The notes under the pieces were generated by a model that saw nothing but the letters and a program-made list of their open reading frames with translations, made no database searches and was not told the origin of the DNA. Below are positions 3,059 to 48,913 of a stretch of DNA of 64,000 nucleotides, piece after piece; position 1 is the first letter of the stretch; each line of letters begins with the position of its first letter. The stretch comes from Candidatus Woesearchaeota archaeon (GTDB lineage Archaea > Nanobdellota > Nanobdellia > Pacearchaeales > GW2011-AR1): the NCBI GenBank assembly GCA_964419275.1, contig CAYQOY010000001.1, positions 15,218 to 79,217 of the forward strand, written 5' to 3'. The translations under genes were made by a program, and so were the position numbers.

Positions 3059-3142
3059 GCGGAAATGCCGGAGTGGTCAAACGGGCTGGATTAAGGCTCC
3101 AGTGGCTTAGTGCCTGCGAAGGTTCGATCCCTTCTTTCCGCA
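3059..3142 (+). tRNA. tRNA-Leu (class II, long variable arm); anticodon reads AAG in the canonical fold
   Basis: 84 nt. Acceptor stem GCGGAAA/TTTCCGC. D-stem CCG/CGG with a 10-nt D-loop. Anticodon stem CTGGA/TCCAG with loop TTAAGGC. Variable arm GGCTTAGTGCC. T-arm GAAGG-TTCGATC-CCTTC. No encoded CCA. Confidence 0.85.
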
Positions 3143-24629: not shown

Positions 24630-27600
24630 ATGAGAAATAAAAATTTCATAAAGGCGTTTGTTTTTCTTTTTGTAGTTGTTGTTTTGCTATTATCTGTTAA
24701 TAGCATTATCACTTTCACCGGAAAAGTTATAACTGAAAGCCAATCCTCCGTACAAAATTCTAATTTCATGCTGGATTCTTTCAGAAGGACAAATCTCGAG
24801 AGCATTAATTCAGTTAATTTGCATGGAGAAATTCCTTCTTCTGTAACTCAAATTAATATGAATACTTTTCAAGAAGGAAATCTTTTTGAAACCGAGTCGC
24901 AAGAGCCTTCTTTGAATTATTCTGGATTTATTGTTGAACTAAAAGAAGAGCCAAGAGTTAAGAAAAGAGTTGAATTAGAAGAATTAGCAAAAAAGAATCA
25001 AGAAATCATAGACACATATCCAGTTTATAGTCCAATTAAGGTGTTAAATTTAATTTCTGGTGTAGATGAAAAAAATTTAGACATTTTCATCGCAAGCGCT
25101 CAACAAAGACAAATCTCTGAGAAAGAAAAAGTTAAGTCTGAGGTTGTTAATCTTGTTCAAGAAAAAATTAATCAAGGAAAAAATCCTTTAACGGGAAATG
25201 CAATATTCGAGGATACACAAATAAACCCGGAGAATATTATTACTGCAGAGTTTCAAGAACTTTTCAATGGTTTTGCAATAAATGTTGATGAAGAAACAGC
25301 AAGAGAAATTGGAGAAATTGAGGGCGTTAAAAGAGTTTGGCCAAATATGATTGTTCAAGCAACTTTAATGGATTCTGTTCCATTGATTCAAGAAGGAATT
25401 CCTTCAGGACAATTAGATTTCGAGGGAAATGATTGTACTATTTCGAGAAAAGAATGCTTAACTGGAAAAGGTGTTAAAATTGCGATACTGGATACGGGTG
25501 TTGATTACACTCATCCAGATTTAGGGGGATGTACTCTGGAGCAAGTTCTAGCTGGAACTTGTGAAAAAGTTATAAGCGGGCAGAATTTTGTTTGGGAAAA
25601 TGGTTTTTTATATCCCAATAAATTTTTAGATGATTATGGTCATGGTACACACTGTGCTGCAACTGCCGCAGGTGAAGGTGTTTTAAAAGGAGTTGCCCCG
25701 GAAGCAAAAATCTTAGCATATAAGGTACTTAATTCTGAAGGTAGTGGGACGTATGGATGGATACTTGGGGGAATTGAAAAATCGATAGAAAATAATGCAG
25801 ATATTTTAAGTTTAAGTTTTGGATCAATTTATGGAAATCCAGATGATCCACTTTCTCAAGCAGTAGATAATGCTGTTTTGGTGGGCAAGGTTGTTGTCGT
25901 TGCTGCAGGAAATGATGGAGAGGATGGGAAAGAGACTATTGGAAGCCCAGGAGTAGCAAGAAGAGTAATAACCGTGGGAGCAGTCACTAAAAATGATTTT
26001 CTTGCATATTTTTCTTCAAAAGGACCCGTAAGATGGAAAAATTCTGAAGGAATCGAGCAAGAATTGGTTAAACCAGATGTTCTTGCACCAGGAGTTTCTA
26101 TTTGCGCAGCGCAAGCTTCTCAAGATAAAATCTGGCAAGAAGTTTACACTTATTATGATGAAAATATTCACTGCATAGATGAAACCCACATATCTATCTC
26201 TGGAACATCTATGGCAACACCTCATGTTGCAGGAACAGCAGCATTATTGAAACAAAAAAATATGAGCTTAAGCCCAGAAGAAATAAAACAGATTCTAAAA
26301 ATGAATTCAATAGACTTGGGGTTAAGTATCTTTGAGCAAGGGATGGGGCGGATTAATGTTTCAAAATCTTTAAGAGAAGAAGTTCCTCTTGTTTCTGTTA
26401 ATGTCTTTCTTTCGGGCGATATCCTTAGATTTCAGGGATCTGTTCAAAGTTTAGAACCACGAAAATATTACTTAGAATACTTTAATAGATACTCCTCTCT
26501 TTGGGAGTCTGTATCTTCTGAGTTAACCTCTGGAGAGTTTGATTTAGAAATGAGCAAGGGACATTTTAATAATGAACGAGGATTATTTAGAATTAAGACT
26601 CTCTTTCCTAATAAAAAAGAATTTTATTACTACTTCTTTAGCCCTTATTTAAACAACTTTGATATTGAACGAGTAGGGCTGATTAGCCCTTATATGACAT
26701 CTCCCCTTGAGCAAGTAACCTTGGATGTTAACACTGATTATATCTATCCTTCTTACGACATTGAAATTAAAAAACCTTTTGAAGAAGACTGGGAGATAAT
26801 TTATTCTTCTTCAGAGCCATTAAAAAAAGGGCAGACAATAACCTTTCAAACAGGCAATTTTTTAGCAGGTAAATATACTTTGAGACTGGTTGCAAAAAGA
26901 GCAGATTCAACTAAGGTGATTAGTCCTTCTTTTTTTGCAGTGTTCATTGAAATGAGTGCCGAGGATAAGATCAAGCCCCTCAATTTTAAGGTTTATCCTC
27001 TCTCACCTTCTTTTTTAAAAGGAGACGATAACTATCTAGTTCTTGCAGAAACCGCAGAAACCTCTGAAATGGATGGTGTTCCTCGTTGGAAGATTCATGT
27101 CTTTAAAGGAGATGAAGAAATCTCTTTGATAGATGAATTAAAAAATAAAAATTTTCATCCTCTTTTAATCTATCCTCTGTCTGATTACGGACATATAGGG
27201 TTTTTACCTTTTTTTAAAGCGGAAGAATTATCTCTTTTCTTGTTAAGTGAAGTAGATGATACTCAAAGATATTCCAGTTATGATAGCTATCTCCGCTTGG
27301 GAGAAGTAAACTTGCAAGGGGAATATCTAGATAGTTGGCCTTATCATCTAGTGGAGGGACTATTAAATCAGTTCTGGTTTAAGCAGTTAATCAAATCCCC
27401 TGAAAAAAATTTCTTTTGGGGTTTTTATGGAAATAACTCTTTTTTCAAGGAATATATGGCTCTCCCTCCGGGAGAGAAGAGCTCAGTTTATTGTTTATAT
27501 ACGAACAAGTACATTCAAAGCTTAGAAAAAGAATTTTTTATTTTTGATAACTCCGGAAATTTAATTAAAAAAATTTCTGATAAAATTTTTAAAGAAGGAG

Positions 27601-29762
27601 AAATCGATTTTGATGATTGTAGTTATAGGTTGGCACATTATAGCATTTATTTCAAAGATAATGAAAGTGAATATCTTCTAAGTTCTTTATGGAGAAGGTC
27701 TAATTCCGATGAAGATCTTTTAGAACCGGGCCAAGTTTCTGTTTGGGATGCGGGAGAGCTTACTTTAGATTTGGTGGATTTAAAAGAAGGGAAAATTATA
27801 GCATCTAAAGAAATAAAAGAAGTGGGCGGAGACTGGATCGAGGCTTCTCCTAATCCTTTGGTTATAAATTCAAGTGGAGAAATTATCTTTGTTTTACCCA
27901 TAAACAAGCACCCTTCAGCAGGAGACGCGTGGTATCTTGATAATCAATCTTCAGAAATGTATCTATTAGATAAAGAACTGCAAATAATCAGAAAAACCAC
28001 TCCTGTTCGAGGTTATGTTTTAAGTACCGAACCCGTAGTCTTGGAACAAGATTCAAAAATATATCTTGTTGCAAGATATTATCGAGGAATTAGCAGACGT
28101 GACTTGAAAACTAAATTGATAATTTCTGATTTAGAGGGAAATATTGTTCGTGAATTTGGGCAAGAACAATCAAGCACCTCTGAATTAACTACGTTACAAT
28201 CGAGGGCTATAGTTACGGGGGACATTAACAATGATGGAATTACAGAGATAATTACTTTTATTGGAGAAGTTGATTCGGAAGGCTCTTCGTGGATCAAAAT
28301 CTATAATTTTTTTGGGGAATTAGTTCGGGAAATAGAAATCCCCAACCTTTATTTTGCTAGTATCACGGATCAAATAAGTTTAGGAGATTATGATAAAAAT
28401 GGTAAACTAGATTTATCTCTTATTCTAAATGAGTATTATCGAGATGGTCCTTTTGGTAAAGAGGGAAATTCTACATTATATCGTTTTGATTTAGGTTATG
28501 ACTATCTTCCTGAAAATCTTTATTGGCCAGACTTTTACGACTCTCAAAATAGCAGATATTACAACTCTGTTCAAAGTCAAATTCAACTACCGTTTTTAGA
28601 TGTAACTGCTCCAATTTATTCAGACGCAAATCATAGCAATACAACTACAGGACAAGCAACTGAGTTTTCTGTTCTCTGGGGGGATGAAACTTCTTTAAAT
28701 CCAAATGGAAAATATATCTTTTCAACTAATAACACGGGAATTTGGATAAATGATTCTGAAGTTAAATTTTCCATGACTCCAATCTGGGCGAATGTCACAA
28801 AAACTTTGGTTTCTCAAGTAGGAGTCACAATAGGTTATAGATGGTATGCTTCAGACAACGCAAGCAACTGGAACTCCACTCCAATTTATTCTTTTGTTAC
28901 AGCTCCTTCTTCACCGATTCCAATTATAGATAAAACAGCTCCAACTTATTCAAATGTAGGACATCAAATAAGTCTTAGTAATTTAAAGTCTACAACCATA
29001 AAATTCTTCTCCTACTGGAACGATGAAACTTCTTTGAATCCAAATGGACAGTATATCTTTTCTACAAATGCTTCAGGTGTATGGAAGAATAATTCTCCAA
29101 TTAAATTTTCAATAACTCCTAGTTGGGCAAATAGCACTTTGACCATTAGCACTGGTGCAAAGGTAATTGGTTATAAATGGTACGCTTCAGATAATGCAAG
29201 TAATTGGAATTCCACCCAAGTTTATTCTTTGAAAGTTGGTAATATTGTACTTCCTCCAGAGAATCCTGTTCCTGTTGAGCCACCTAAAGAAACTCCGAAT
29301 CCTGTAGAACCACCAATAGAAGAAGAACCTATTCCAATAAAACCAACTGAACCAATTAAACAATCCGGAGATGTTTATCCTCCAACATATATGAATGTAG
29401 TTCATTTAAACACTTATGCAGGGCTTCCAGCAGCGTTTTCAATAACCTGGATAGATGAAACTTCATTAACACCTAATGGAGAATATATCTTTTCAACAGA
29501 TAACTCTGGGCAATGGGTAAATGATACTCCTGTTAAATTTGGAACATCTACTTCTGCAATTGTTGGAAAAAGCATAACTGTCCCGGTAACAAAAATATTA
29601 ACTTCTCAATCTGGAAAAACAGTAAGTTATAGGTGGTATGCTTCAGATAATTCTGGAAACTGGAGAGCAACCGAAACTTATTCTTTCGTTACAAAAACTA
29701 ATTGGAGAACTCTTTTGAGCAGAGTCACGGGAAACATTATAAGATTCTTCTTTAAAGAATAA
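24630..29762 (+). CDS. giant secreted subtilisin-like (S8) serine protease with FG-GAP-like repeats and a triplicated ~100-aa C-terminal domain
   Basis: Signal/anchor helix. Catalytic triad VKIAILDTGVD (D), HGTHCAATAAG (H), GTSMATPHVAGTAALL (S). DINNDGITEI and GDYDKNGKLD repeats. Three C-terminal copies of ...WxDETSLxPNGxYIFSTxNxGxWxN...YxWYASDNxxNW..T.xYS. Pro-rich linker PVPVEPPKETPNPVEPP. Many N-x-S/T sequons. Confidence 0.85.
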   Translation: MRNKNFIKAFVFLFVVVVLLLSVNSIITFTGKVITESQSSVQNSNFMLDSFRRTNLESINSVNLHGEIPSSVTQINMNTFQEGNLFETESQEPSLNYSGFIVELKEEPRVKKRVELEELAKKNQEIIDTYPVYSPIKVLNLISGVDEKNLDIFIASAQQRQISEKEKVKSEVVNLVQEKINQGKNPLTGNAIFEDTQINPENIITAEFQELFNGFAINVDEETAREIGEIEGVKRVWPNMIVQATLMDSVPLIQEGIPSGQLDFEGNDCTISRKECLTGKGVKIAILDTGVDYTHPDLGGCTLEQVLAGTCEKVISGQNFVWENGFLYPNKFLDDYGHGTHCAATAAGEGVLKGVAPEAKILAYKVLNSEGSGTYGWILGGIEKSIENNADILSLSFGSIYGNPDDPLSQAVDNAVLVGKVVVVAAGNDGEDGKETIGSPGVARRVITVGAVTKNDFLAYFSSKGPVRWKNSEGIEQELVKPDVLAPGVSICAAQASQDKIWQEVYTYYDENIHCIDETHISISGTSMATPHVAGTAALLKQKNMSLSPEEIKQILKMNSIDLGLSIFEQGMGRINVSKSLREEVPLVSVNVFLSGDILRFQGSVQSLEPRKYYLEYFNRYSSLWESVSSELTSGEFDLEMSKGHFNNERGLFRIKTLFPNKKEFYYYFFSPYLNNFDIERVGLISPYMTSPLEQVTLDVNTDYIYPSYDIEIKKPFEEDWEIIYSSSEPLKKGQTITFQTGNFLAGKYTLRLVAKRADSTKVISPSFFAVFIEMSAEDKIKPLNFKVYPLSPSFLKGDDNYLVLAETAETSEMDGVPRWKIHVFKGDEEISLIDELKNKNFHPLLIYPLSDYGHIGFLPFFKAEELSLFLLSEVDDTQRYSSYDSYLRLGEVNLQGEYLDSWPYHLVEGLLNQFWFKQLIKSPEKNFFWGFYGNNSFFKEYMALPPGEKSSVYCLYTNKYIQSLEKEFFIFDNSGNLIKKISDKIFKEGEIDFDDCSYRLAHYSIYFKDNESEYLLSSLWRRSNSDEDLLEPGQVSVWDAGELTLDLVDLKEGKIIASKEIKEVGGDWIEASPNPLVINSSGEIIFVLPINKHPSAGDAWYLDNQSSEMYLLDKELQIIRKTTPVRGYVLSTEPVVLEQDSKIYLVARYYRGISRRDLKTKLIISDLEGNIVREFGQEQSSTSELTTLQSRAIVTGDINNDGITEIITFIGEVDSEGSSWIKIYNFFGELVREIEIPNLYFASITDQISLGDYDKNGKLDLSLILNEYYRDGPFGKEGNSTLYRFDLGYDYLPENLYWPDFYDSQNSRYYNSVQSQIQLPFLDVTAPIYSDANHSNTTTGQATEFSVLWGDETSLNPNGKYIFSTNNTGIWINDSEVKFSMTPIWANVTKTLVSQVGVTIGYRWYASDNASNWNSTPIYSFVTAPSSPIPIIDKTAPTYSNVGHQISLSNLKSTTIKFFSYWNDETSLNPNGQYIFSTNASGVWKNNSPIKFSITPSWANSTLTISTGAKVIGYKWYASDNASNWNSTQVYSLKVGNIVLPPENPVPVEPPKETPNPVEPPIEEEPIPIKPTEPIKQSGDVYPPTYMNVVHLNTYAGLPAAFSITWIDETSLTPNGEYIFSTDNSGQWVNDTPVKFGTSTSAIVGKSITVPVTKILTSQSGKTVSYRWYASDNSGNWRATETYSFVTKTNWRTLLSRVTGNIIRFFFKE

Positions 29763-30874: not shown

Positions 30875-31798
30875 TTATCTTGTCTTAAATTCAACAACAT
30901 CCAAATCTTTTAGTTCATGCTTTAATCCAACTTTTTGTCCTGCGAATTTTGAACTTGGGCCCCATATTTTTGTTTCACTAACTTTTTCAGAGAATCCCTT
31001 TAAGATTTTTTCAGCAACATCCCTCACTGTCGATTCTGGTTCCAGAATAACTGGCTTGTCTTTGTCTTTGTTTACTTCTTTTCCCGGTTCTTTGAGATAA
31101 ACTCTAATTTTATCAAAACTTTTGAAAATCTTTTCCTTGAGTTCATCGTAATTTTCTTGAGTTTCACCAGAAATCATTACAAATTCATATTTCTTAGACT
31201 GAAGTGTTGAAGAAATTTTTCTAATTTCATTTGCAGAAAGAGAATCTATCTTGTTGAAAAGAATTATTCTTTTTCCATAAGCTCTTTCTGTTTGTTTTTC
31301 AATTTCAGAAATTTGAGCAATTTCTGTCACGAGAAATAAAAGAGTGTCTGCAGAATTAACAAGCCCTTTGTCATAATATTCTGAGCCTATTGCAGGAATC
31401 TCCATTATCTGAATATTTGTACCAGCATAGTGCATTATTCCTTGAACAGGTTGTTTTGTGGTAAACCCATAATGCGCAATTTCTGGTTTAGTGTTTGTTA
31501 GATTTGCAAGAAGAGTGGATTTTCCCGTGTTAGCAAATCCTACAATAACTGCTTGCATATCCTCTTTTTTTATTCCTGGTTTTTTTGAGCCTTTGCTAGT
31601 TTTTCGCGTTGATTCGATCTTCTCTTTAAGCTTAATATACCTTGTTTTAAGATTAGCTAGCATTTTTTCACTGGATTTGTGCTTAGGGCATTCTTTTATC
31701 ATTTCTTCAAGGCACTTAAGTTTCTCTTCATTTGTTTTAGCCAAGAAAAATTGCGCTTCTGCTTTTTTATACTGGGGAGATTGGTTTGTGGATGCCAT
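30875..31798 (-). CDS. DRG/Obg-family GTPase with C-terminal TGS domain
   Basis: G1 VIVGFANTGKSTL, G2 GFTTKQPV, G4 NKID. DRG-like helical N-terminus. TGS-like C-terminus (VYLKEPGKE...STVRDVAEKI). G3 is atypical (MEIPAI instead of DxPG). Confidence 0.6.
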   Translation of the reverse strand: MASTNQSPQYKKAEAQFFLAKTNEEKLKCLEEMIKECPKHKSSEKMLANLKTRYIKLKEKIESTRKTSKGSKKPGIKKEDMQAVIVGFANTGKSTLLANLTNTKPEIAHYGFTTKQPVQGIMHYAGTNIQIMEIPAIGSEYYDKGLVNSADTLLFLVTEIAQISEIEKQTERAYGKRIILFNKIDSLSANEIRKISSTLQSKKYEFVMISGETQENYDELKEKIFKSFDKIRVYLKEPGKEVNKDKDKPVILEPESTVRDVAEKILKGFSEKVSETKIWGPSSKFAGQKVGLKHELKDLDVVEFKTR

Positions 31799-31857
31799 TT
31801 TGGTGCTTAATTCTCTTTAACCCTTTAATATTTAAATATCTTTTAATTAAAAAAGTT

Positions 31858-32655
31858 ATGAAAATAAAAGAAACAGGACTTTCTAAAGAACAGTTAATAT
31901 CTAAAATAATTGAAAAAAAAGAATTTTCCGAGCTTCCAAAAATTGATGTAGAAAATGTTTTCAATAAATTCAACAAACCAAGTTATTCAGACGAAGAAAA
32001 AATTAAGCTAACGAGGGATTCTTTGCGAAAGATTTTTTCAGGGTTTAGCAGTCAAAAGATTTTCTCTTTGAAAGAAAAGTCTTCGGAATGGCATTTGAAA
32101 AAGCATCTTTCCACCAGAGAAAGGCTGCCTCACTTTTCCAAGATTTATTCTAAGATTTTTTCTGGAATGCCTAAAAAAATAAGTATAATTGATTTAGGAG
32201 CAGGAATAAACGGATTAAGTTACAGCTTTTTTGAAAAAGTTGGCTTTAAAGTAGAATATACTGCAGTAGAATCTGTTGGGCAACTCGTAACTGCTATGAA
32301 TGAATTCTTTGTTAAAGAAAAATTATCCGGGCGTGCTGTCAAAATGAGTTTATTCGACCTAGAAAATCTGAAAAAGTTAATTGAAAAAACTCCCCAACCC
32401 AGATTGACTTTTTTGTTTAAAGTTATTGATTCTCTTGAAGCTATAGAAAAAGATTACTCGAAAAAGCTGATTGACTATTTGGCAGGAAATTCTGAAAAAG
32501 TTGTTGTAAGTTTTGCAACAGAAAGTATGATTAAACGAACTAAATTCCGAGCAAATCGTAATTGGATAATTGAATTTTTAAAAGAGAATTTTAATGTTTT
32601 AGATGACTTTTCCTATGGCGGAGAAAGATTCTTTGTTTTAACTAAGAGAAACTGA
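31858..32655 (+). CDS. FmrO/Rmt-Arm-like rRNA methyltransferase homologue (16S rRNA m7G1405 MTase family)
   Basis: Block similarity to RmtB/ArmA: HLSTRERL...YSKIFS...ISIIDLGAGINGLSY (vs HASTKERL...YDFIFS...RVLDIACGLNPLAL), FLFKVIDSLE, VVVSFATESMIKR (vs MAVSFPTRSLGGR). Start set at the internal ATG 31858. Confidence 0.5.
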   Translation: MKIKETGLSKEQLISKIIEKKEFSELPKIDVENVFNKFNKPSYSDEEKIKLTRDSLRKIFSGFSSQKIFSLKEKSSEWHLKKHLSTRERLPHFSKIYSKIFSGMPKKISIIDLGAGINGLSYSFFEKVGFKVEYTAVESVGQLVTAMNEFFVKEKLSGRAVKMSLFDLENLKKLIEKTPQPRLTFLFKVIDSLEAIEKDYSKKLIDYLAGNSEKVVVSFATESMIKRTKFRANRNWIIEFLKENFNVLDDFSYGGERFFVLTKRN

Positions 32656-32700: not shown

Positions 32701-33903
32701 ATGACTAAAATTCAAAGAAAAATTTTGAAAAACGGCATGGTTGTTCTTTTTGAAAAAAGAAATCTTCCTGTAGTGAGCGTGGCATTTGCTTCTAAAGCAG
32801 GGGGAATAAACGAAGCTGTTTATGAAAAGGGAATTTCACATTACATTGAGCATATGCTTTACAAAGGAACACCCAAACGAGACGCAAAAAAGATTGCTGA
32901 AGAAATTGAAAAGAATGGAGGTGTTCTTAATGGATTTACAGATGAAGATTTAACAGCCTTTTGGTGTAAAATGCCCAGCAAACATCTTAAGACTGCATTA
33001 GAAGTTTTAGGAGACATGGTTGAAAATCCTGTTTTTGACGAAAAAGAATTGGAAAAAGAAAGAAAAGTTATTTTTGAAGAAATGAAAATGCGGAAAGACA
33101 ATCCCGGAATTTATGTTTTCGACAAATTAGGAAGTTTGCTTTACGAACCTCCTTTTGGAATCTCACTTATAGGAACAGAAAAAACAATGGGTGCGATTAA
33201 TCGGGAAAAGATTATTGATAAATTCAAGAAGCTTTATCAGCCAAGCAATATGATTTTATGTGTTGTGGGAAAAGCTAACTTTAATGAAATTGTTAAATTT
33301 GCAGAAAAAAGATTTTCATTTAAGAAAGCAGAAGTTCCAAAGCAAAAGATTATTGCAATAAATAAATCTCAAATCGAAAAGCGAACAGGAATTGACCAGG
33401 CAAATCTCGTTTTTGCTTATCATGTTCCAAAAATAAAAGACAAGAGAATCTATGCCTCTATGGTTTTGAATACTTTGCTTGCAGGAGGGATGTCTTCAAG
33501 GCTATTTGCTGAAATCAGGGAAAAAAGAAATCTTGCTTATTCGATTCGAGGAGGATTAGACACAGGAAAAGATTATGGGCATGCCTACATTTATGTTGGA
33601 ACTTCCAAGGAAAATGTCGCTAAAGTTAAACAGTTAATAATCGAAGAATTTCAAAAAGTTTCCCGAGATATTTCAGAAAAAGAATTAAAGCAAGTTAAAG
33701 AGCAAATAATTGGAAATTACAAAATTTCTGTCGAGGATTCTTACTCCCAAATGATTAATCTTCTTTATAGCGAAACTTTTGATAATATAAAAAATTACGA
33801 AAAGTACGAGAAATATATTTCTGAAGTTAAAATAAGCGAGATTAAAGAATTAGCTAAGAAAGCAATTGAGAAATACAGTTTTTTCGCTCTTATCCCTAAA
33901 TAA
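32701..33903 (+). CDS. M16 (pitrilysin) family zinc peptidase
   Basis: HxxEH motif GISHYIEHMLYKGT, downstream E in EEMKMR. 400 aa. Confidence 0.75.
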   Translation: MTKIQRKILKNGMVVLFEKRNLPVVSVAFASKAGGINEAVYEKGISHYIEHMLYKGTPKRDAKKIAEEIEKNGGVLNGFTDEDLTAFWCKMPSKHLKTALEVLGDMVENPVFDEKELEKERKVIFEEMKMRKDNPGIYVFDKLGSLLYEPPFGISLIGTEKTMGAINREKIIDKFKKLYQPSNMILCVVGKANFNEIVKFAEKRFSFKKAEVPKQKIIAINKSQIEKRTGIDQANLVFAYHVPKIKDKRIYASMVLNTLLAGGMSSRLFAEIREKRNLAYSIRGGLDTGKDYGHAYIYVGTSKENVAKVKQLIIEEFQKVSRDISEKELKQVKEQIIGNYKISVEDSYSQMINLLYSETFDNIKNYEKYEKYISEVKISEIKELAKKAIEKYSFFALIPK

Positions 33904-42904: not shown

Positions 42905-45193
42905 ATGGAATTTGAACAGGGAGCAGCTCTTTATTCTTATCAAGTTAAAAAAGAGGGCGGTGAAGATGTTTTGTATATCAATTATCTAGGTGCGCCCTTT
43001 GTTCCGGATTTAGCTGGTTCTGCAGAGATTATGGAAAGAACAATGGATGCACTTATTGAAAATCCCAATGTTTCTAGAATTGTTTTTGTTCAACAAAAGA
43101 ATTACAATTACGATTTCAAAGAAACTTCTTTGATATTGGAAATTGCTCAACTTTATGTTTACTTAATTAAACAAGAACAAATACTTTCCAGAGAAAAATT
43201 AGTAACATTCAATGAACAATTTCACTCTTCAAGGTACAAGGAAATGTTTTCTTTTCTTTATTTGTTGAAAAGAGACCCGGTCTCAGCATACGCTACTCTG
43301 GAAGACACTATTGTTCACGCGAAGGTCATCTTAGAAAGAATGGGTGATGAAATGGCAAGAGACCAAGCTAATTATGTAAGACTTCTAGAGAAAATTTTCA
43401 TTTTATTAAGCTCAACAAAACTCATTTCTCAAGTCAAAGATTACATATCAGATTATTCCAAGGGAAGCAGAGAAATTTATTACCGCGTTTTCAAAGCAGA
43501 TGTAATTCCCAATTTCACTTTCACAAGGCTTGTTTCCGAATTGCCAGAAGATGCAGAGATTGTAGACCAATACAAAATTTCCAGCGGAGAGTATGATGAA
43601 TCTCTTGTTACAATTTTAAGAAGCAAAGAAGAAGCTAAAATGATTTACCATATTGTTCCTCCAGAAAATAATTTAAATGAATCTCAGAATATGCTTTTGA
43701 ATTTAGCTAAGAATGTTTTAATTGAGCACCAGCCTCGTGCAGAAGAATTTACAGACACTGAAAGAACAAGACATGTTTTTTTTAACATTGCCCGAGATTT
43801 ATTGCAAGATTTAGCGCAAACAAAAAAGATTCTCCTTAAGTATCCTGATTTAAACACCTTAGCAACAATTCTTGTAAGGCATACAATCGGTTTCGGAGTT
43901 ATCGAGGTTCTTTTGCAAGACAAAAAAATTCAGGATATTGTTTTGAATGCGCCTATTCCTTTGACTAAGATTTTTTTAAGGCATCAGGATTATGAAGAGT
44001 GTGCAACAAATATTCTTCCAAGCCAGGAAGAGGTTGACTCTTGGGCTTCAAAATTCAGAATGATTTCTGGAAGGCCTTTAGATGAAGCTAATCCTATTTT
44101 AGACACCCAATTGGAAATAGAAAAACTTAGAGCCAGAATTGCAATTGTTCAGCAGCCTCTTTCTCCAATGGGGATATCTTATGCAATTAGAAAACACAGA
44201 GAAGAGCCTTGGACATTGCCGCTGTTTATTAGAAATAGAACCCTGAATTCTTTTGCTGCAGGATTATTGAGTTTTCTTATTGATGGAGCAAGAACAATGC
44301 TTATTGCTGGAACAAGAAGCTCTGGTAAAACTTCTTTGCTGGGAAGTTTAATGCTTGAAATTTTGCCTAAAACTAGAATCATCGTTATTGAAGATTCTTT
44401 GGAGCTGCCATTGGATGCTTTAAGAAAATTAAACTACGATGTTCTCAGAATGAAGGTTCGTTCTGCTTTGCTTAAAACAACAACAGAAGTTTCAGCTTCA
44501 GATGGAATCAGAACCAGTTTAAGACTTGGAGATTCTTCTTTGATTATCGGTGAAGTTAGAAGCGCAGAAGCAAAAGCTCTTTATGAAGCAATGAGAATTG
44601 GTGCGCTTGCAAATGTCGTGGCTGGAACAATTCACGGTGCTTCACCTTATGATGTTTTTGACAGGGTTGTAAATGATTTGAATGTCCCAACAACAAGTTT
44701 CAAAGCAACAGACATAATTGTAGTTACAAATCCGATTAAATCTGCAGATGGGCTTTCTTCTAAAAAAAGAGTTTTGCTTGTAACAGAAGTTAGAAAGCAC
44801 TGGACAAAAGATCCTCTTCTTGAAAAAGGGTTTGTTGATTTGCTTAGATACAATGTTGAAAAAGATGAATTAGAACCCACAGAAGATTTGATTAATGGAG
44901 ACAGTGAAATAATCAAAAGCATTGCGTCAAGTGTTAAGGGCTGGGCTGGAAATTGGGATGCGGTTTATGATAATATTCTTTTAAGAGCTAAAATTAAGCA
45001 AGAGATAGTTGATGTTGCTGAAAGAATAGGCAATGAAAGGTTGCTTGAGGCTAAATTCAATGTTTTTGCTAATCAAGTCTTCCACAGGATTTCCAGCGAA
45101 GTTAGAGAAGAATTTGGATTGCCTTATTCAGATAAAGTTTTCCCTCGCTGGCAGAAATGGCTTAATGAGGAAATTAAGAGCGGCAAATGGTAA
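42905..45193 (+). CDS. FlaI/VirB11/GspE-family secretion ATPase with ~300-aa N-terminal extension (pilus assembly ATPase)
   Basis: Walker A AGTRSSGKTS, Asp box IIVIEDSLEL, Walker B/His box GEVRSAEA...AGTIHG. 762 aa. Confidence 0.8.
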   Translation: MEFEQGAALYSYQVKKEGGEDVLYINYLGAPFVPDLAGSAEIMERTMDALIENPNVSRIVFVQQKNYNYDFKETSLILEIAQLYVYLIKQEQILSREKLVTFNEQFHSSRYKEMFSFLYLLKRDPVSAYATLEDTIVHAKVILERMGDEMARDQANYVRLLEKIFILLSSTKLISQVKDYISDYSKGSREIYYRVFKADVIPNFTFTRLVSELPEDAEIVDQYKISSGEYDESLVTILRSKEEAKMIYHIVPPENNLNESQNMLLNLAKNVLIEHQPRAEEFTDTERTRHVFFNIARDLLQDLAQTKKILLKYPDLNTLATILVRHTIGFGVIEVLLQDKKIQDIVLNAPIPLTKIFLRHQDYEECATNILPSQEEVDSWASKFRMISGRPLDEANPILDTQLEIEKLRARIAIVQQPLSPMGISYAIRKHREEPWTLPLFIRNRTLNSFAAGLLSFLIDGARTMLIAGTRSSGKTSLLGSLMLEILPKTRIIVIEDSLELPLDALRKLNYDVLRMKVRSALLKTTTEVSASDGIRTSLRLGDSSLIIGEVRSAEAKALYEAMRIGALANVVAGTIHGASPYDVFDRVVNDLNVPTTSFKATDIIVVTNPIKSADGLSSKKRVLLVTEVRKHWTKDPLLEKGFVDLLRYNVEKDELEPTEDLINGDSEIIKSIASSVKGWAGNWDAVYDNILLRAKIKQEIVDVAERIGNERLLEAKFNVFANQVFHRISSEVREEFGLPYSDKVFPRWQKWLNEEIKSGKW

Positions 45194-45511: not shown

Positions 45512-47677
45512 ATGTCTTTACCTAATCAAAATCCGCCAAGCGTAGATGATATTTTAAAAAAATACGGAAGAAAAATTGAAAAGCAAATCAACAGTTCGCC
45601 TCTTTCTTACCAAAAAGGAAATTACAGCCAGTCTTATTCCAAGTTCAAGCAAGAAATGGCTCCAGAATGGTCAAGATATGAACGATGGTGCAACATCCTT
45701 GGAAACACTTTGAAAGTAAAAGCTTCAAAAAAAGATGAAGAAAAAATCAAGAAATACTTAGAGATAGCTCATCTTGACGTTGAACCCTGGCAAGCAATTA
45801 CTCTCGGGTTAACTGCTTTTATCGGTGTTTTTTTTCTTAATTTAATTCTTTCTTTGTCTATATTTTTTATAACAACCAGTTTTCCAGGAACATTTTTTCT
45901 TTTGATGTTAATTTTTTCTTTGTTTATTTATTCTTACGTGAACAGTTATCCAGAAAGATTTGCCAACAAATGGAGGCTTAAAGCTTCATCTCAAATGGTC
46001 CCTGCTATTTTGTATGTTGTTGTTTACATGAGGCATACTCCTAATCTTGAAAAAGCAATTGCTTTTGCCGCAGAAAATATAGAATACCCCCTTTCCTTGG
46101 ATTTAAGAAAGGTTTTTTATGATGTTGAAATAGGAAAATTCTCAACAATAAAAGAAAGCTTAGATAATTACTTGGAAGTTTGGAGAGATTATTCTCCGGA
46201 ATTTATTGAGTCTTTCCATTTAATTGAAAGCAGCCTCTTTGAGCCCGGAGAAGACAGAAGAATTTCTGTTTTAGAAAAATCTATTCAAGTTGTTTTGGAT
46301 GGTGTTTATGACAGAATGCTTAAGTTTGTTCATGAAACAAAAGGCCCTGTTCAAAATACTTACATGTTGGGAACTGTTCTTCCTGTTTTAGGATTAGCGT
46401 TGCTTCCTTTAGCTTCGGTTATGATTGCAGATATGCTTAATGCAGATCATGTTTTCATGCTTTACAACTTAATTATTCCCTTTTTAGCTTTTTTCTTAAT
46501 GAATAAATACATGATGATGCGTCCAGGAGGACATGGAGAAACTTCTTTTTTAGAAAGAAACCCTAAGTATTCTTCTTTTAAAAATAATAGACATTATGTT
46601 AAAGCTTCTTTAATCGCAATTCCTTTAATTATTCTCGGATTTTTGCCTTTGATATTTCAGTATACCCCTCTTCCCGAACTTTTAGGATTACAAAAAGATT
46701 ATACTCTTGCTCAGTTGAAATTAGGCAGTTCTGAAGATCAAATGTTTTTTGGATTTGTTGGAAAACCCGGAGAACCGGTTAAAGGTCCATTTGGAATTGG
46801 TGCATCTATTCTAAGCATGTTTGTTCCTTTAGGAATCGCTCTATTCTTTTCTATTGCTTATACCAGTAAAACTAAGGAAATGATAAAAGAAAGAAATAAA
46901 ACCAAAGAGTTAGAAAAAGAATTCAACAGTTCACTTTTCCAGCTAGGAAATAGAATCGGAAATGGAACGCCTCCAGAGCTGGTTTTTAGCAAAGTTGCTG
47001 AATCTTCCAGAGGAATGAAAACTGAGGATTTCTTTAGAAAAGTTAGCTATAATATTCAAAGACTTGGAATGAGTGTTGAAAACGCTTTGTTTGAGAACAG
47101 AAGGGGAGTTATGAATGAGTACCCTTCCGGGTTAATTGCAACAAGCATGAGAATCTTAGTTGAGGCAGCCAAAAAAGGATTGCACATTGCAGCAGTTAGT
47201 TTGATGAGCATTTCAGAGTATATTAAAAATATTCAGAAAATTAATGATAGGCTAAAGGATATGCTTGCTGAAACTGTTTCAGATATGAAAAGTAATATGA
47301 CTTTCTTAACGCCTCTTCTAGCAGGTGTTGTTGTCGGACTTTCAACAATGATCACTAATATTCTGGGAAAAGTTAATCTTTTAGAAAGTTTGCAAGACCA
47401 GGAAATTTCGGGTATTGGCAATGTCTTAAAGATGATGGATATTAAATTAATGATTCCTCCTTATTTCCTTCAACTTGCAATCGGAATTTATTTGGTTCAA
47501 ATAATCTTTATTTTAACGCAAACTTTAGTCACAATAGACGCCGGTGAAGATGAGCTTGAAAGACTTAATAAAACTGGAAAAAACCTTAAGGCCGGAATGT
47601 TGTTTTACTTTTTCACTGCAGCAATTACCACTCTGATTTTATTTGCAATATCTTCTTCAGTTTTATCTGGAATGTGA
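45512..47677 (+). CDS. FlaJ/TadC-like polytopic membrane platform protein (T2SS-F-like)
   Basis: 721 aa. Two blocks of TM helices separated by cytoplasmic helical domains. Position immediately after the FlaI-like ATPase. Confidence 0.6.
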   Translation: MSLPNQNPPSVDDILKKYGRKIEKQINSSPLSYQKGNYSQSYSKFKQEMAPEWSRYERWCNILGNTLKVKASKKDEEKIKKYLEIAHLDVEPWQAITLGLTAFIGVFFLNLILSLSIFFITTSFPGTFFLLMLIFSLFIYSYVNSYPERFANKWRLKASSQMVPAILYVVVYMRHTPNLEKAIAFAAENIEYPLSLDLRKVFYDVEIGKFSTIKESLDNYLEVWRDYSPEFIESFHLIESSLFEPGEDRRISVLEKSIQVVLDGVYDRMLKFVHETKGPVQNTYMLGTVLPVLGLALLPLASVMIADMLNADHVFMLYNLIIPFLAFFLMNKYMMMRPGGHGETSFLERNPKYSSFKNNRHYVKASLIAIPLIILGFLPLIFQYTPLPELLGLQKDYTLAQLKLGSSEDQMFFGFVGKPGEPVKGPFGIGASILSMFVPLGIALFFSIAYTSKTKEMIKERNKTKELEKEFNSSLFQLGNRIGNGTPPELVFSKVAESSRGMKTEDFFRKVSYNIQRLGMSVENALFENRRGVMNEYPSGLIATSMRILVEAAKKGLHIAAVSLMSISEYIKNIQKINDRLKDMLAETVSDMKSNMTFLTPLLAGVVVGLSTMITNILGKVNLLESLQDQEISGIGNVLKMMDIKLMIPPYFLQLAIGIYLVQIIFILTQTLVTIDAGEDELERLNKTGKNLKAGMLFYFFTAAITTLILFAISSSVLSGM

Positions 47678-47887: not shown

Positions 47888-48913
47888 ATGGGAGAGCTTA
47901 TTCCAAACACAACAACCAAGTTTATTTTGTCTGCAGCTTTGATTATAATAATAACAGTTGCTATTGGCGCTTTGTTTTCAAATTCTTTTCTTCCTTGGAT
48001 TAAAGGTTTTATTACAGAATGGAATCCCTTCCGCCCAGCAGAAGGATGGGAATTGACAATAATAAGTAAAACTGATTTCACAGAGCCAATCCCCGAATGG
48101 GTTATTGATAGATATTTAGAAGAAACTTTTGAAGAATTAACTGAAAAAAATATCTTAAATACTGTTGGTCAAGGTTCTTCTTGTTATAACGAACCCTATC
48201 CCCTCAGAACGAATGTAAACAAAATTGAAGAAGGAAGAGACTTAACAGCTCTTTGGAAGGAATACAAAGAAAACGTAGACACAACTAATCCCTGCACCTC
48301 AAGTTGCTCTTTGAATTGGAAGTTACTTAATCAAAATGAACAAGATCGAGAAAAACTTAAAGAATATCTTTTTTTATGGGGCTTTTGTAAGAATCATAAT
48401 AATTTAGGAAATCTGCAATTCAGTAAATTATCTGACATTTCTGTTCAACCTAATTTAATTCATTTTAGAAATATGATTATTCATAAAAAAGTGTTTGAAG
48501 TAGGTTCGGATTATATCAAAAATATTCTCATTTCTCAAGGAACAGACGCATATAAAATAATTTACCCCTCTTTTTCTGGAACATATGAAAAAGTTTATTC
48601 TGAATTAATCACCGGAAGGGATTATAATGATAAAATCTATTGTCCTCTTTGGAGCAATGGGCAAATAAAAGAGGGGGGAATTTGTAAAGATTCTCGAGTT
48701 AAATCCAACGTTGTGACCTTAGTTTCTAAGGGCGGATTAAATAGAGAAGTTTCTCTTTTTATGGTTTGGACAAATGATGAAGGAAAGCTTATCTGTGAAG
48801 AAGATAAAACTGACAAGTTACTTTCTCCTCGTAGCTCTTGTACTATTAAAATGAATGGAAATAAAGAAATATTTGTTAAAGCAGCTCCTCTCGGACTTTT
48901 AGAAGGCTTTTAA
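47888..48913 (+). CDS. secreted/membrane-anchored Cys-rich protein
   Basis: N-terminal hydrophobic anchor (FILSAALIIIITVAIGALF). Multiple Cys pairs (SSCYNEP, CTSSCSLNWK, CPLWSNGQIKEGGICKD). Confidence 0.4.
   Translation: MGELIPNTTTKFILSAALIIIITVAIGALFSNSFLPWIKGFITEWNPFRPAEGWELTIISKTDFTEPIPEWVIDRYLEETFEELTEKNILNTVGQGSSCYNEPYPLRTNVNKIEEGRDLTALWKEYKENVDTTNPCTSSCSLNWKLLNQNEQDREKLKEYLFLWGFCKNHNNLGNLQFSKLSDISVQPNLIHFRNMIIHKKVFEVGSDYIKNILISQGTDAYKIIYPSFSGTYEKVYSELITGRDYNDKIYCPLWSNGQIKEGGICKDSRVKSNVVTLVSKGGLNREVSLFMVWTNDEGKLICEEDKTDKLLSPRSSCTIKMNGNKEIFVKAAPLGLLEGF

Follow-up and report, generated by a model that had tools for sequence, protein, structure and literature searches.

An archaeal homologue of the 16S rRNA m7G1405 methyltransferases that confer aminoglycoside resistance is a syntenic core gene in Nanoarchaeota

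To our knowledge, the methyltransferases that modify G1405 of 16S rRNA at N7 (m7G1405) have nearly always been described in pathogens and antibiotic producers, as determinants of high-level pan-aminoglycoside resistance. The described enzymes RmtB, RmtC, RmtF, ArmA and Sgm (PF07091, EC 2.1.1.179) are 251–281 amino acids (aa) long, and consist of the helical subdomains N1 and N2 and a class I methyltransferase domain. The gene considered here encodes a 265-aa homologue with the same architecture. It lies at positions 31858..32655 of the forward strand in 64,000 nucleotides (nt) of DNA from Candidatus Woesearchaeota archaeon, a very small, symbiotic archaeon of the DPANN group (assembly GCA_964419275.1, contig CAYQOY010000001.1, positions 15,218 to 79,217). 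This whole stretch is called the window below, and its numbering is used for all coordinates that carry no locus label.

One archaeal member of the family has been described before. Husain et al. 2010 (PMC2896518) counted NEQ545 of Nanoarchaeum equitans in the Arm family, calling it the 'first archaeal ortholog'; they described its C-terminal motifs as perfectly conserved and its helical N-terminal domain as having strongly diverged, and left its function open. That paper knew one archaeal sequence, and placed NEQ545 as derived from the pathogen group (PMC2896518). In the literature searched, no later follow-up of NEQ545 was found, a preprint on methyltransferases of the candidate phyla radiation was without mention of the family, and nothing relevant was found on aminoglycoside-type methyltransferases of DPANN archaea. 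A preliminary description of the window, made from its sequence, had called an archaeal copy notable. The archaeal homologue stands, but its novelty is tempered by the report of NEQ545 in 2010 and by the automatic naming of many such proteins at the Joint Genome Institute (JGI).

The protein is confirmed as a member of the FmrO/Arm/Kgm family by its Pfam score, its two-domain fold and its cofactor- and guanine-binding residues. Pfam FmrO (PF07091) matches residues 79–230 with 44.3 bits (E = 2e-11; gathering cut-off, 27 bits). No other Pfam family comes close to this score, and Methyltransf_31 gives a weak match (E = 0.018). PF07091 is also precomputed for nearly all of the homologues listed. 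The general Rmt model of NCBIfam, NF000466, aligns over its full length (residues 11–261 against model positions 1–253/254). In the Protein Data Bank (PDB), phmmer finds Sgm (E = 7e-10), RmtC (4e-5), ArmA (2e-4) and RmtB (9e-4), while a profile of 60 family sequences (A1) finds solely m7G1405 methyltransferases at E ≤ 0.01, the best being RmtC (5e-12). When plasmids are searched with tblastn, residues 3–263 align to RmtB with 22.9% identity (E = 0.01).

The same picture is given by an AlphaFold2 model, for which the A1 profile also served as input. The mean predicted local distance difference test score (pLDDT) is 90.6 and the predicted template modelling (TM) score is 0.88; only residues 64–66 and 227–229 have pLDDT < 50. 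Helices extend over residues 10–100 and are followed by an alternating β/α domain. When the model is compared with the PDB by Foldseek, ranks 1–15 are all occupied by RmtC, RmtB, RmtF, Sgm and ArmA (E from 6e-15 to 9e-10). The fourteen full-length chains among them have TM scores of 0.63–0.76 over approximately 270–290 columns, and a truncated ArmA chain has a query TM score of 0.55 over 194 columns. Because the alignments span approximately 270–290 columns, the N-terminal helical domain superposes as well. The first match outside the m7G1405 enzymes is AzeJ (E = 8e-7, TM ≤ 0.5).

Homology to the FmrO/Rmt/Arm enzymes was what the preliminary description had proposed, with a Pfam FmrO search and a structural comparison to RmtB and Sgm as checks. 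Both turned out in its favour: the Pfam match is above the cut-off, the best matches are not unrelated Rossmann enzymes, RmtB and Sgm are among the fifteen best structures, and the catalytic residues are kept. The motifs that it quoted are all present, namely HLSTRERL (residues 83–90), YSKIFS (97–102), IIDLGAGINGLSY (110–122), FLFKVIDSLE (185–194) and VVVSFATESM (215–224). The RmtB strings that it had given for comparison, VLDIACGLNPLAL and MAVSFPTRSL, agree with the real rmtB1 gene.

For the comparison of single residues, the rmtB (rmtB1 of plasmid CP046971.1), RmtC and ArmA genes were aligned with the archaeal homologues closest to the window protein (120 sequences) and with 101 representatives at greater distance, and the counts given below refer to the former 120. 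Residue roles were taken from the cryo-electron microscopy study of RmtC on the 30S subunit (PMC10054953) and from the Sgm structure paper (PMC2896518). The N-terminal all-helical domain (residues 1–100; 31858..32157, + strand) is equivalent to the N1/N2 30S-docking subdomains of RmtB and RmtC, as judged from the model, Foldseek and column mapping. It carries the conserved basic residues K16, K20, K48, K50, R53, K67, K72 and K82 and the aromatic F63. The last corresponds to RmtC Tyr60 and is F in 118 of the homologues; Tyr60 stacks between S-adenosylmethionine (SAM) and G1405, and the Y60F mutant has nearly wild-type activity (PMC10054953). R53 corresponds to Arg50, which contacts the phosphate of G1516 in h45 (PMC10054953), and is R or K in all 120 homologues; K50 corresponds to Lys47, a 30S-docking residue, and is K or R in 116.

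The cofactor site is kept in similar detail. In the HLSTRER motif (residues 83–89; 32104..32124, + strand), H83, S85, E88 and R89 are invariant and T86 nearly so, and RmtB, RmtC and ArmA have the same residues. S85 is equivalent to RmtC Ser107, which contacts the SAM carboxylate (PMC10054953), and its column is S in 120/120; R89 is equivalent to RmtC Arg111 and Sgm Arg108, which take part in binding SAM. In the strand and loop of SAM-binding motif I, IIDLGAGINGLSY (32185..32223, + strand; from alignments with homologues and with bacterial enzymes), no homologue departs from D112 (RmtC Asp134), G116 or N118, and G114 is nearly invariant; the family of the window protein has 'NG' where the bacterial enzymes have 'NP'. 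The acidic residue that ends strand β2, E138 (32269..32271, + strand), aligns with D160, D131 and D137 of RmtC, RmtB and ArmA, and is E in 119 homologues, a conservative D-to-E replacement. Asp160 of RmtC, or Asp156 of Sgm, binds the ribose hydroxyls of SAM (PMC10054953, PMC2896518). K188 in FLFKVIDSLE (32419..32421, + strand) is equivalent to RmtC Lys204 and is K in 120/120. Lys204 is universally conserved and contacts N7 of the flipped G1405, and the K204A mutant is inactive (PMC10054953).

Residues 222–231 (32521..32550, + strand) form the apparent equivalent of RmtC Loop237–246, which is disordered in the free bacterial enzymes and ordered only on the 30S subunit (PMC10054953). In the model, the low-confidence stretch 227–229 falls at the position of this loop. 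The loop holds R227, which corresponds to RmtC Arg241, a residue in contact with the U1495 phosphate (PMC10054953), and which is R or K in 115 of the homologues.

The family is widespread in the archaea to which the window belongs. A word-indexed protein search gave 875 homologue clusters; the best 120 of these have 52–77% identity and lengths of 250–290 aa, and are from Pacearchaeota or Nanoarchaeota wherever named. An exhaustive search of 1.84 billion representatives gave 645 clusters at E ≤ 1e-3, 252 at E ≤ 1e-10 and 34 at E ≤ 1e-30. Among ten intermediate cluster representatives, two have informative names, both Nanoarchaeota. In GTDB contigs with one genome per species, at least 219 genomes encode a relative that two peptide patterns of Pacearchaeota type detect. 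Of the 219, the best 80 (47–77% identity) are metagenome-assembled genomes (MAGs) of Nanoarchaeota, Pacearchaeota or Woesearchaeota, except for one labelled 'Bacillota'. In this last contig (L082, DATKUW010000085.1, 'Bacillota bacterium'; 52% identity), the full gene order TyrRS, DRG, FmrO, M16, arginase, LigT and XPF is present. It is almost certainly a DPANN contig that was mis-binned into a bacterial MAG, and no bacterial occurrence.

The gene order is conserved in the best 80 of the 219 loci, and reads TyrRS (+), DRG (-), FmrO (+), M16 peptidase (+), arginase-family (+), LigT (+), XPF (-). In the window, the nearest neighbours are a DRG-type GTPase (30875..31798, - strand; Pfam MMR_HSR1, MMR_HSR1_Xtn and TGS) and an M16, or pitrilysin-type, peptidase (32701..33903, + strand; Pfam). 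In 72 of the 80 loci the former lies upstream, on the other strand, and in 71 the latter follows downstream on the same strand. The other neighbours are found less often (TyrRS in 56, XPF in 47, arginase-family in 46 and LigT in 37 loci). The median identity across the loci is 54% for FmrO, a value among those of its housekeeping neighbours, which have 59, 61, 61, 53 and 38% for DRG, M16, XPF, LigT and TyrRS, respectively. Purifying selection is seen in a ratio of nonsynonymous to synonymous substitution rates (dN/dS) of approximately 0.09 against the nearest orthologue (L004, 77% identity), with dS near saturation. The gene has the same GC content as the rest of the window (approximately 32%), without compositional anomaly. 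No relative closer than RmtB was found by tblastn on 72,556 plasmids. Transposase, integrase and aminoglycoside-biosynthesis domains were absent from the neighbours and ten larger open reading frames (ORFs), a scan that covered about half of the 42 ORFs of at least 180 aa.

The gene is a vertically inherited and constrained core gene of Nanoarchaeota (Pacearchaeota-type DPANN), and no mobile resistance cassette. The preliminary description had allowed that the protein may simply be a housekeeping enzyme. This reservation is now strongly favoured by phylum-wide vertical inheritance, conserved synteny, and neighbours that act in translation and small-subunit (SSU) biogenesis.

Such neighbours also occur in a second, Woesearchaeota-type group of homologues (A2), whose representatives have approximately 30% identity to the window protein and are named Woesearchaeota, Nanoarchaeota or 'archaeon'; several of them bear the JGI name '16S rRNA (guanine(1405)-N(7))-methyltransferase'. 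They are homologous to the window protein along their whole length (hhalign probability 100%, E = 2.6e-52), and have the same archaeal N1 signature K-K-E-[LF], Arg in the column of His54, and the equivalent of Lys204. They differ from it in a bacterial-like 'NP' in motif I, D or E in the Asp160 column, a longer N2 insert (270–295 aa in total), and a different gene neighbourhood.

In three loci (L084:3967-5822, L086:3964-5870 and L087:2901-4849), there is an overlap of 13 nt between the FmrO homologue and the 3' end of the gene for Pelota, a ribosome-rescue protein, and this suggests that the two are translationally coupled. In a fourth (L089:2587-4828), a 140-aa ORF lies between the two. A gene for a TrmB-type regulator is next on the same strand in the first three loci; in L089 it is on the opposite strand, approximately 1.5 kb downstream. 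All four have PheRS alpha further downstream, and PheRS beta was seen in L084 and L086. In another locus (L088:2767-4789; GCA_043814545.1, JBDRJY010000007.1), the genes for RIO1 kinase and a Pno1/Dim2-like KH protein are followed by that for the FmrO homologue, the last of the run, with 4-nt overlaps; the run is downstream of eIF-1A and near S15 and S3Ae, both ribosomal protein genes. Among the factors of late SSU maturation, Rio1 and Pno1/Dim2 act around h44/h45 and the 3' end of 16S rRNA, and Pelota and DRG are ribosome-associated. Since three independent gene contexts carry genes of the ribosome or of SSU biogenesis, the family appears to be linked to the small subunit.

Taken with the residue comparison and the model, these contexts point to a constitutive enzyme that probably acts on the nearly mature small subunit and methylates N7 of G1405, at the top of helix 44. 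By homology with the bacterial enzymes, we infer the methyltransferase activity, the 30S substrate, G1405 as the target, the stage at which the enzyme acts and its role in the cell. Through its basic, helical N-terminal domain it would dock on the h24/h27/h44/h45 surface of the assembled or nearly mature small subunit, a surface whose conservation holds across the domains of life. The flexible loop 222–231, with R227, and neighbouring residues would then distort helix 44 at its top so that G1405 flips out. The guanine and the SAM adenine would be stacked on the two sides of F63, K188 would position N7, and SAM, held by S85, R89, D112 and E138, would donate its methyl group to give m7G1405. The modification would be made constitutively on the cell's own ribosomes, late in SSU maturation, and insensitivity to 4,6-disubstituted deoxystreptamine (4,6-DOS) aminoglycosides would be a by-product or a secondary benefit.

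Several observations weigh against m7G1405 as the product. The NF000466 score is 80.6 bits, below the equivalog cut-off of 250, and the identity to RmtB, RmtC and ArmA is only 20–23%. By this score, and by a context without mobile elements, the protein is outside the curated Rmt resistance equivalog. The docking surface also appears to have changed. RmtC Lys20 is replaced by Glu or Asp in 117 of the 120 homologues (E22 here), with a Lys one residue earlier (K21) in a signature K-K-E-F; Tyr21 is replaced by Phe in 111 (F23 here), and the near-universal His54 by Arg in 95 (R57 here). Met245 is not kept as Met or Leu; according to the alignment used, it is matched by R231 or by F230. The columns of Arg39 and Arg211 are variable. 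At approximately 20% identity, the N-terminal alignment to the bacterial enzymes is not certain to the single residue. K20, Y21, H54 and M245 are individually essential in RmtC (PMC10054953). From the RmtC-equivalent residues that are kept and those that are changed, the catalytic pocket is canonical and part of the 30S-docking surface appears archaeon-specific.

No 16S rRNA gene is present in the window (Rfam), and the motif of 16S positions 1392–1406, which we take to be universally conserved and in which G1405 lies, is absent from 169 related loci. No report of m7G1405 in an archaeon was found in the literature searched.

A further point of this kind comes from a sister sub-lineage of DPANN archaea with 33–40% identity to the window protein (loci L090–L169 on metagenome contigs, e.g., L092:3989-4756 and L100:3995-4705; representatives P0140–P0185). 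In its 80 loci, the column of Lys204 is Gln in 58, Asn in 10 and Leu in 1. This sub-lineage has HxSS[KS]xR instead of HxSTxER, with a 2-residue deletion, and keeps SAM motif I. Its genes occupy the same M16/DRG/XPF slot, M16 being downstream in 62 of the 80 loci; because of this shared slot they are positional orthologues and not paralogues. Judging from these sequences, the active site is either altered or lost; either the archaeal setting allows the chemistry to tolerate the change, or that lineage has come to another target or role. The variants slightly lower the confidence in strictly canonical m7G1405 formation as the conserved function of the family. The window protein has the canonical Lys.

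The main rival reading keeps the family and the fold and changes the target, which would be another guanine of 16S or 23S rRNA, a pre-rRNA intermediate or a tRNA. The consistent replacement in the archaeal clade of docking and loop residues essential in RmtC, the NF000466 score, and the function left open for NEQ545 (PMC2896518) all agree with it. On the other side, K188, F63, S85 and E138, which stand for the guanine- and SAM-contacting residues, are kept, as are R53, K50 and R227, whose RmtC counterparts contact h45, h27/h44 and U1495. The N-terminal domain as a whole superposes on the bacterial structures in the model, and the h24/h27/h44/h45 docking surface is highly conserved (PMC10054953). 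A different target is accordingly considered unlikely, at perhaps one chance in five.

It is less likely still that the protein is mainly a non-catalytic factor of SSU assembly or quality control, whose binding at the decoding centre of late pre-30S particles outweighs methyl transfer, as has been discussed for KsgA/Dim1. The operon with the late SSU factors RIO1 and Pno1/Dim2-like protein in one lineage would fit such a role, and so would Pelota or DRG as neighbours elsewhere, and the positional orthologues in which the catalytic Lys and the STxER Glu are gone but the fold and motif I are kept. However, the cofactor- and base-binding residues of the window protein and its 120 closest relatives are kept in a way that is hard to explain without catalysis, and the low dN/dS also speaks against this role.

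A horizontally acquired aminoglycoside-resistance gene, or a producer's self-resistance gene, comparable to plasmid-borne armA/rmt or actinomycete sgm/kgm, is very improbable. The protein is of the same Pfam family as these, and m7G1405, if made, would block 4,6-DOS aminoglycosides. In contrast, synteny is kept across at least 80 species-level genomes, the base composition equals that of the flanks, mobile-element and biosynthesis domains are absent from the ORFs scanned, and the plasmids hold no close relative; for the breadth of occurrence together with these reasons, a mobile gene was rejected. Chance resemblance of an unrelated class I methyltransferase, which could appeal only to the generic Rossmann fold seen in the weak Methyltransf_31 match, is already refuted by the family motifs outside the SAM site (HxSTxER, FK..D.LE and SF.T.S), the shared N-terminal helical domain, and a gap of approximately three orders of magnitude in Foldseek between the m7G1405 enzymes and all other methyltransferases.

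A methylation of G1405 on the cell's own ribosomes thus stays the preferred reading for the window protein. A wider proposal is more tentative, with somewhat less than even chances: m7G1405, or a methylation at the same site, may be a constitutive housekeeping mark of SSU rRNA throughout the Nanoarchaeota/DPANN, added in late 30S maturation together with Rio1, Pno1/Dim2, Pelota and DRG. ArmA and Rmt might then be offshoots or siblings of an ancient housekeeping lineage and no inventions of antibiotic producers, and one archaeal sub-lineage might have rewired its active site (Lys to Gln or Asn).

The limits of the gene were set as follows. The longest mechanical ORF is 31786–32655 (+), with a TTG start, and the ATG at 31858 gives the 265-aa protein and a stop codon; the ORF list, PF07091 and NF000466 support the coding sequence. 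The TTG start at 31786 was rejected: homologue alignments start at approximately residue 8 of the 265-aa protein, residues 1–9 are unstructured in the model, and the extension runs into the start of the DRG gene. The start codon of this divergent gene is the CAT at 31796–31798, and because the longer version overlaps it, 31858–32655 is accepted as the gene. An identical protein (P0001) is encoded on a 93-kb contig that is already public. No second paralogue was found within the window.

The divergent intergenic region between the DRG and methyltransferase genes (31799..31857) is 59 bp long, as read directly from the sequence. It contains the AT-rich TTTAAATA at 31831–31838, approximately 23 nt upstream of the methyltransferase ATG, and this element sits inside the near-palindromic ATATTTAAATAT (31829–31840). 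The AT-rich element may be a putative archaeal TATA box whose mRNA would be leaderless or have a short leader, and the near-palindrome could act as a shared or bidirectional TATA element.

The rest of the window is archaeal in content, with both subunits of PolD (DP1 and DP2), Cdc6/Orc1 and an archaeal-type DRG; TyrRS, an XPF/ERCC4 nuclease and LigT are also encoded. A secreted-looking subtilisin of 1710 aa (24630–29762, + strand; Peptidase_S8 with I9 propeptide) has a long C-terminal region with three similar repeats ('...TAP.YS...NPNG.YIFSTN..G.W.N...KFS.TP.WAN.T...YRWYASDNA.NWNST..YS..') without a Pfam match, and a homologue of it is detectable nearby in only 1 of 80 related genomes. Downstream of the gene for a T2SSE/PilB-like ATPase (42905–45193) are two ORFs of 721 aa (45512–47677, + strand) and 341 aa (47888–48913, + strand) that match no Pfam family at E ≤ 1e-5. 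A stand-alone 5S rRNA gene (2830–2944, - strand) is the divergent neighbour of tRNA-Leu(AAG) (3059–3142, + strand; both from Rfam). Because this 5S gene is not accompanied by a 16S or 23S gene anywhere in the 64 kb, unlinked rRNA genes would fit.

What is at stake is the evolutionary origin of the m7G1405 methyltransferases and their native housekeeping role. At this locus the family is represented by a conserved, syntenic and strongly constrained core gene of genome-reduced DPANN archaea. If the proposed activity is true, it would be a new modification for the archaeal ribosome, intrinsic aminoglycoside insensitivity would be predicted in the organisms that carry the gene, and the enzyme would offer a natural housekeeping reference for how the resistance enzymes recognise the 30S subunit.

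Several known systems may serve for comparison. KsgA/Dim1 is the housekeeping dimethyltransferase that makes m6,2A1518/1519 in h45; it acts on the decoding-centre face of a late SSU precursor and is connected, during SSU maturation, with Pno1/Dim2 and the Rio kinases. The parallel is one of function only, since family, target base and chemistry are different and the sequence likeness is limited to the Rossmann fold. NpmA and KamB (m1A1408) dock on the same 16S tertiary surface in a mature 30S subunit and flip a base of helix 44 (PMC10054953). They also belong to another family and have no N1/N2 domain, and they are absent from the PDB sequence and profile matches listed and from the best 50 of 470 significant Foldseek matches.

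The closest likeness is to the bacterial m7G1405 enzymes, which share with the window protein HxSTxER, D-x-G-x-G-x-N, an acidic ribose binder, SF-x-T-x-S, F-K-x-x-D/P-x-L-E with the N7-contacting Lys, an aromatic residue at Y60, Arg or Lys at R50 as well as at R241, and, ahead of the last strands, what appears to be a flexible loop. The window protein departs from them in K20 to E, Y21 to F, H54 to R, the loss of M245, 'NG' for 'NP' and E for D160. Its gene is chromosomal, core and syntenic, unlike the bacterial genes on plasmids or transposons or in antibiotic clusters. NEQ545, which is likened to the window protein by its published description only, is likewise an archaeal member of the family, from the Nanoarchaeota; against the one archaeal sequence of 2010, hundreds of species with conserved synteny are now seen. 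The existence of an archaeal homologue has been known since 2010, automated labels for such proteins exist, and the protein itself is mechanistically unsurprising. What is new is the phylum-wide scale, the synteny, the linkage to ribosome biogenesis, and the archaeal signature in N1.

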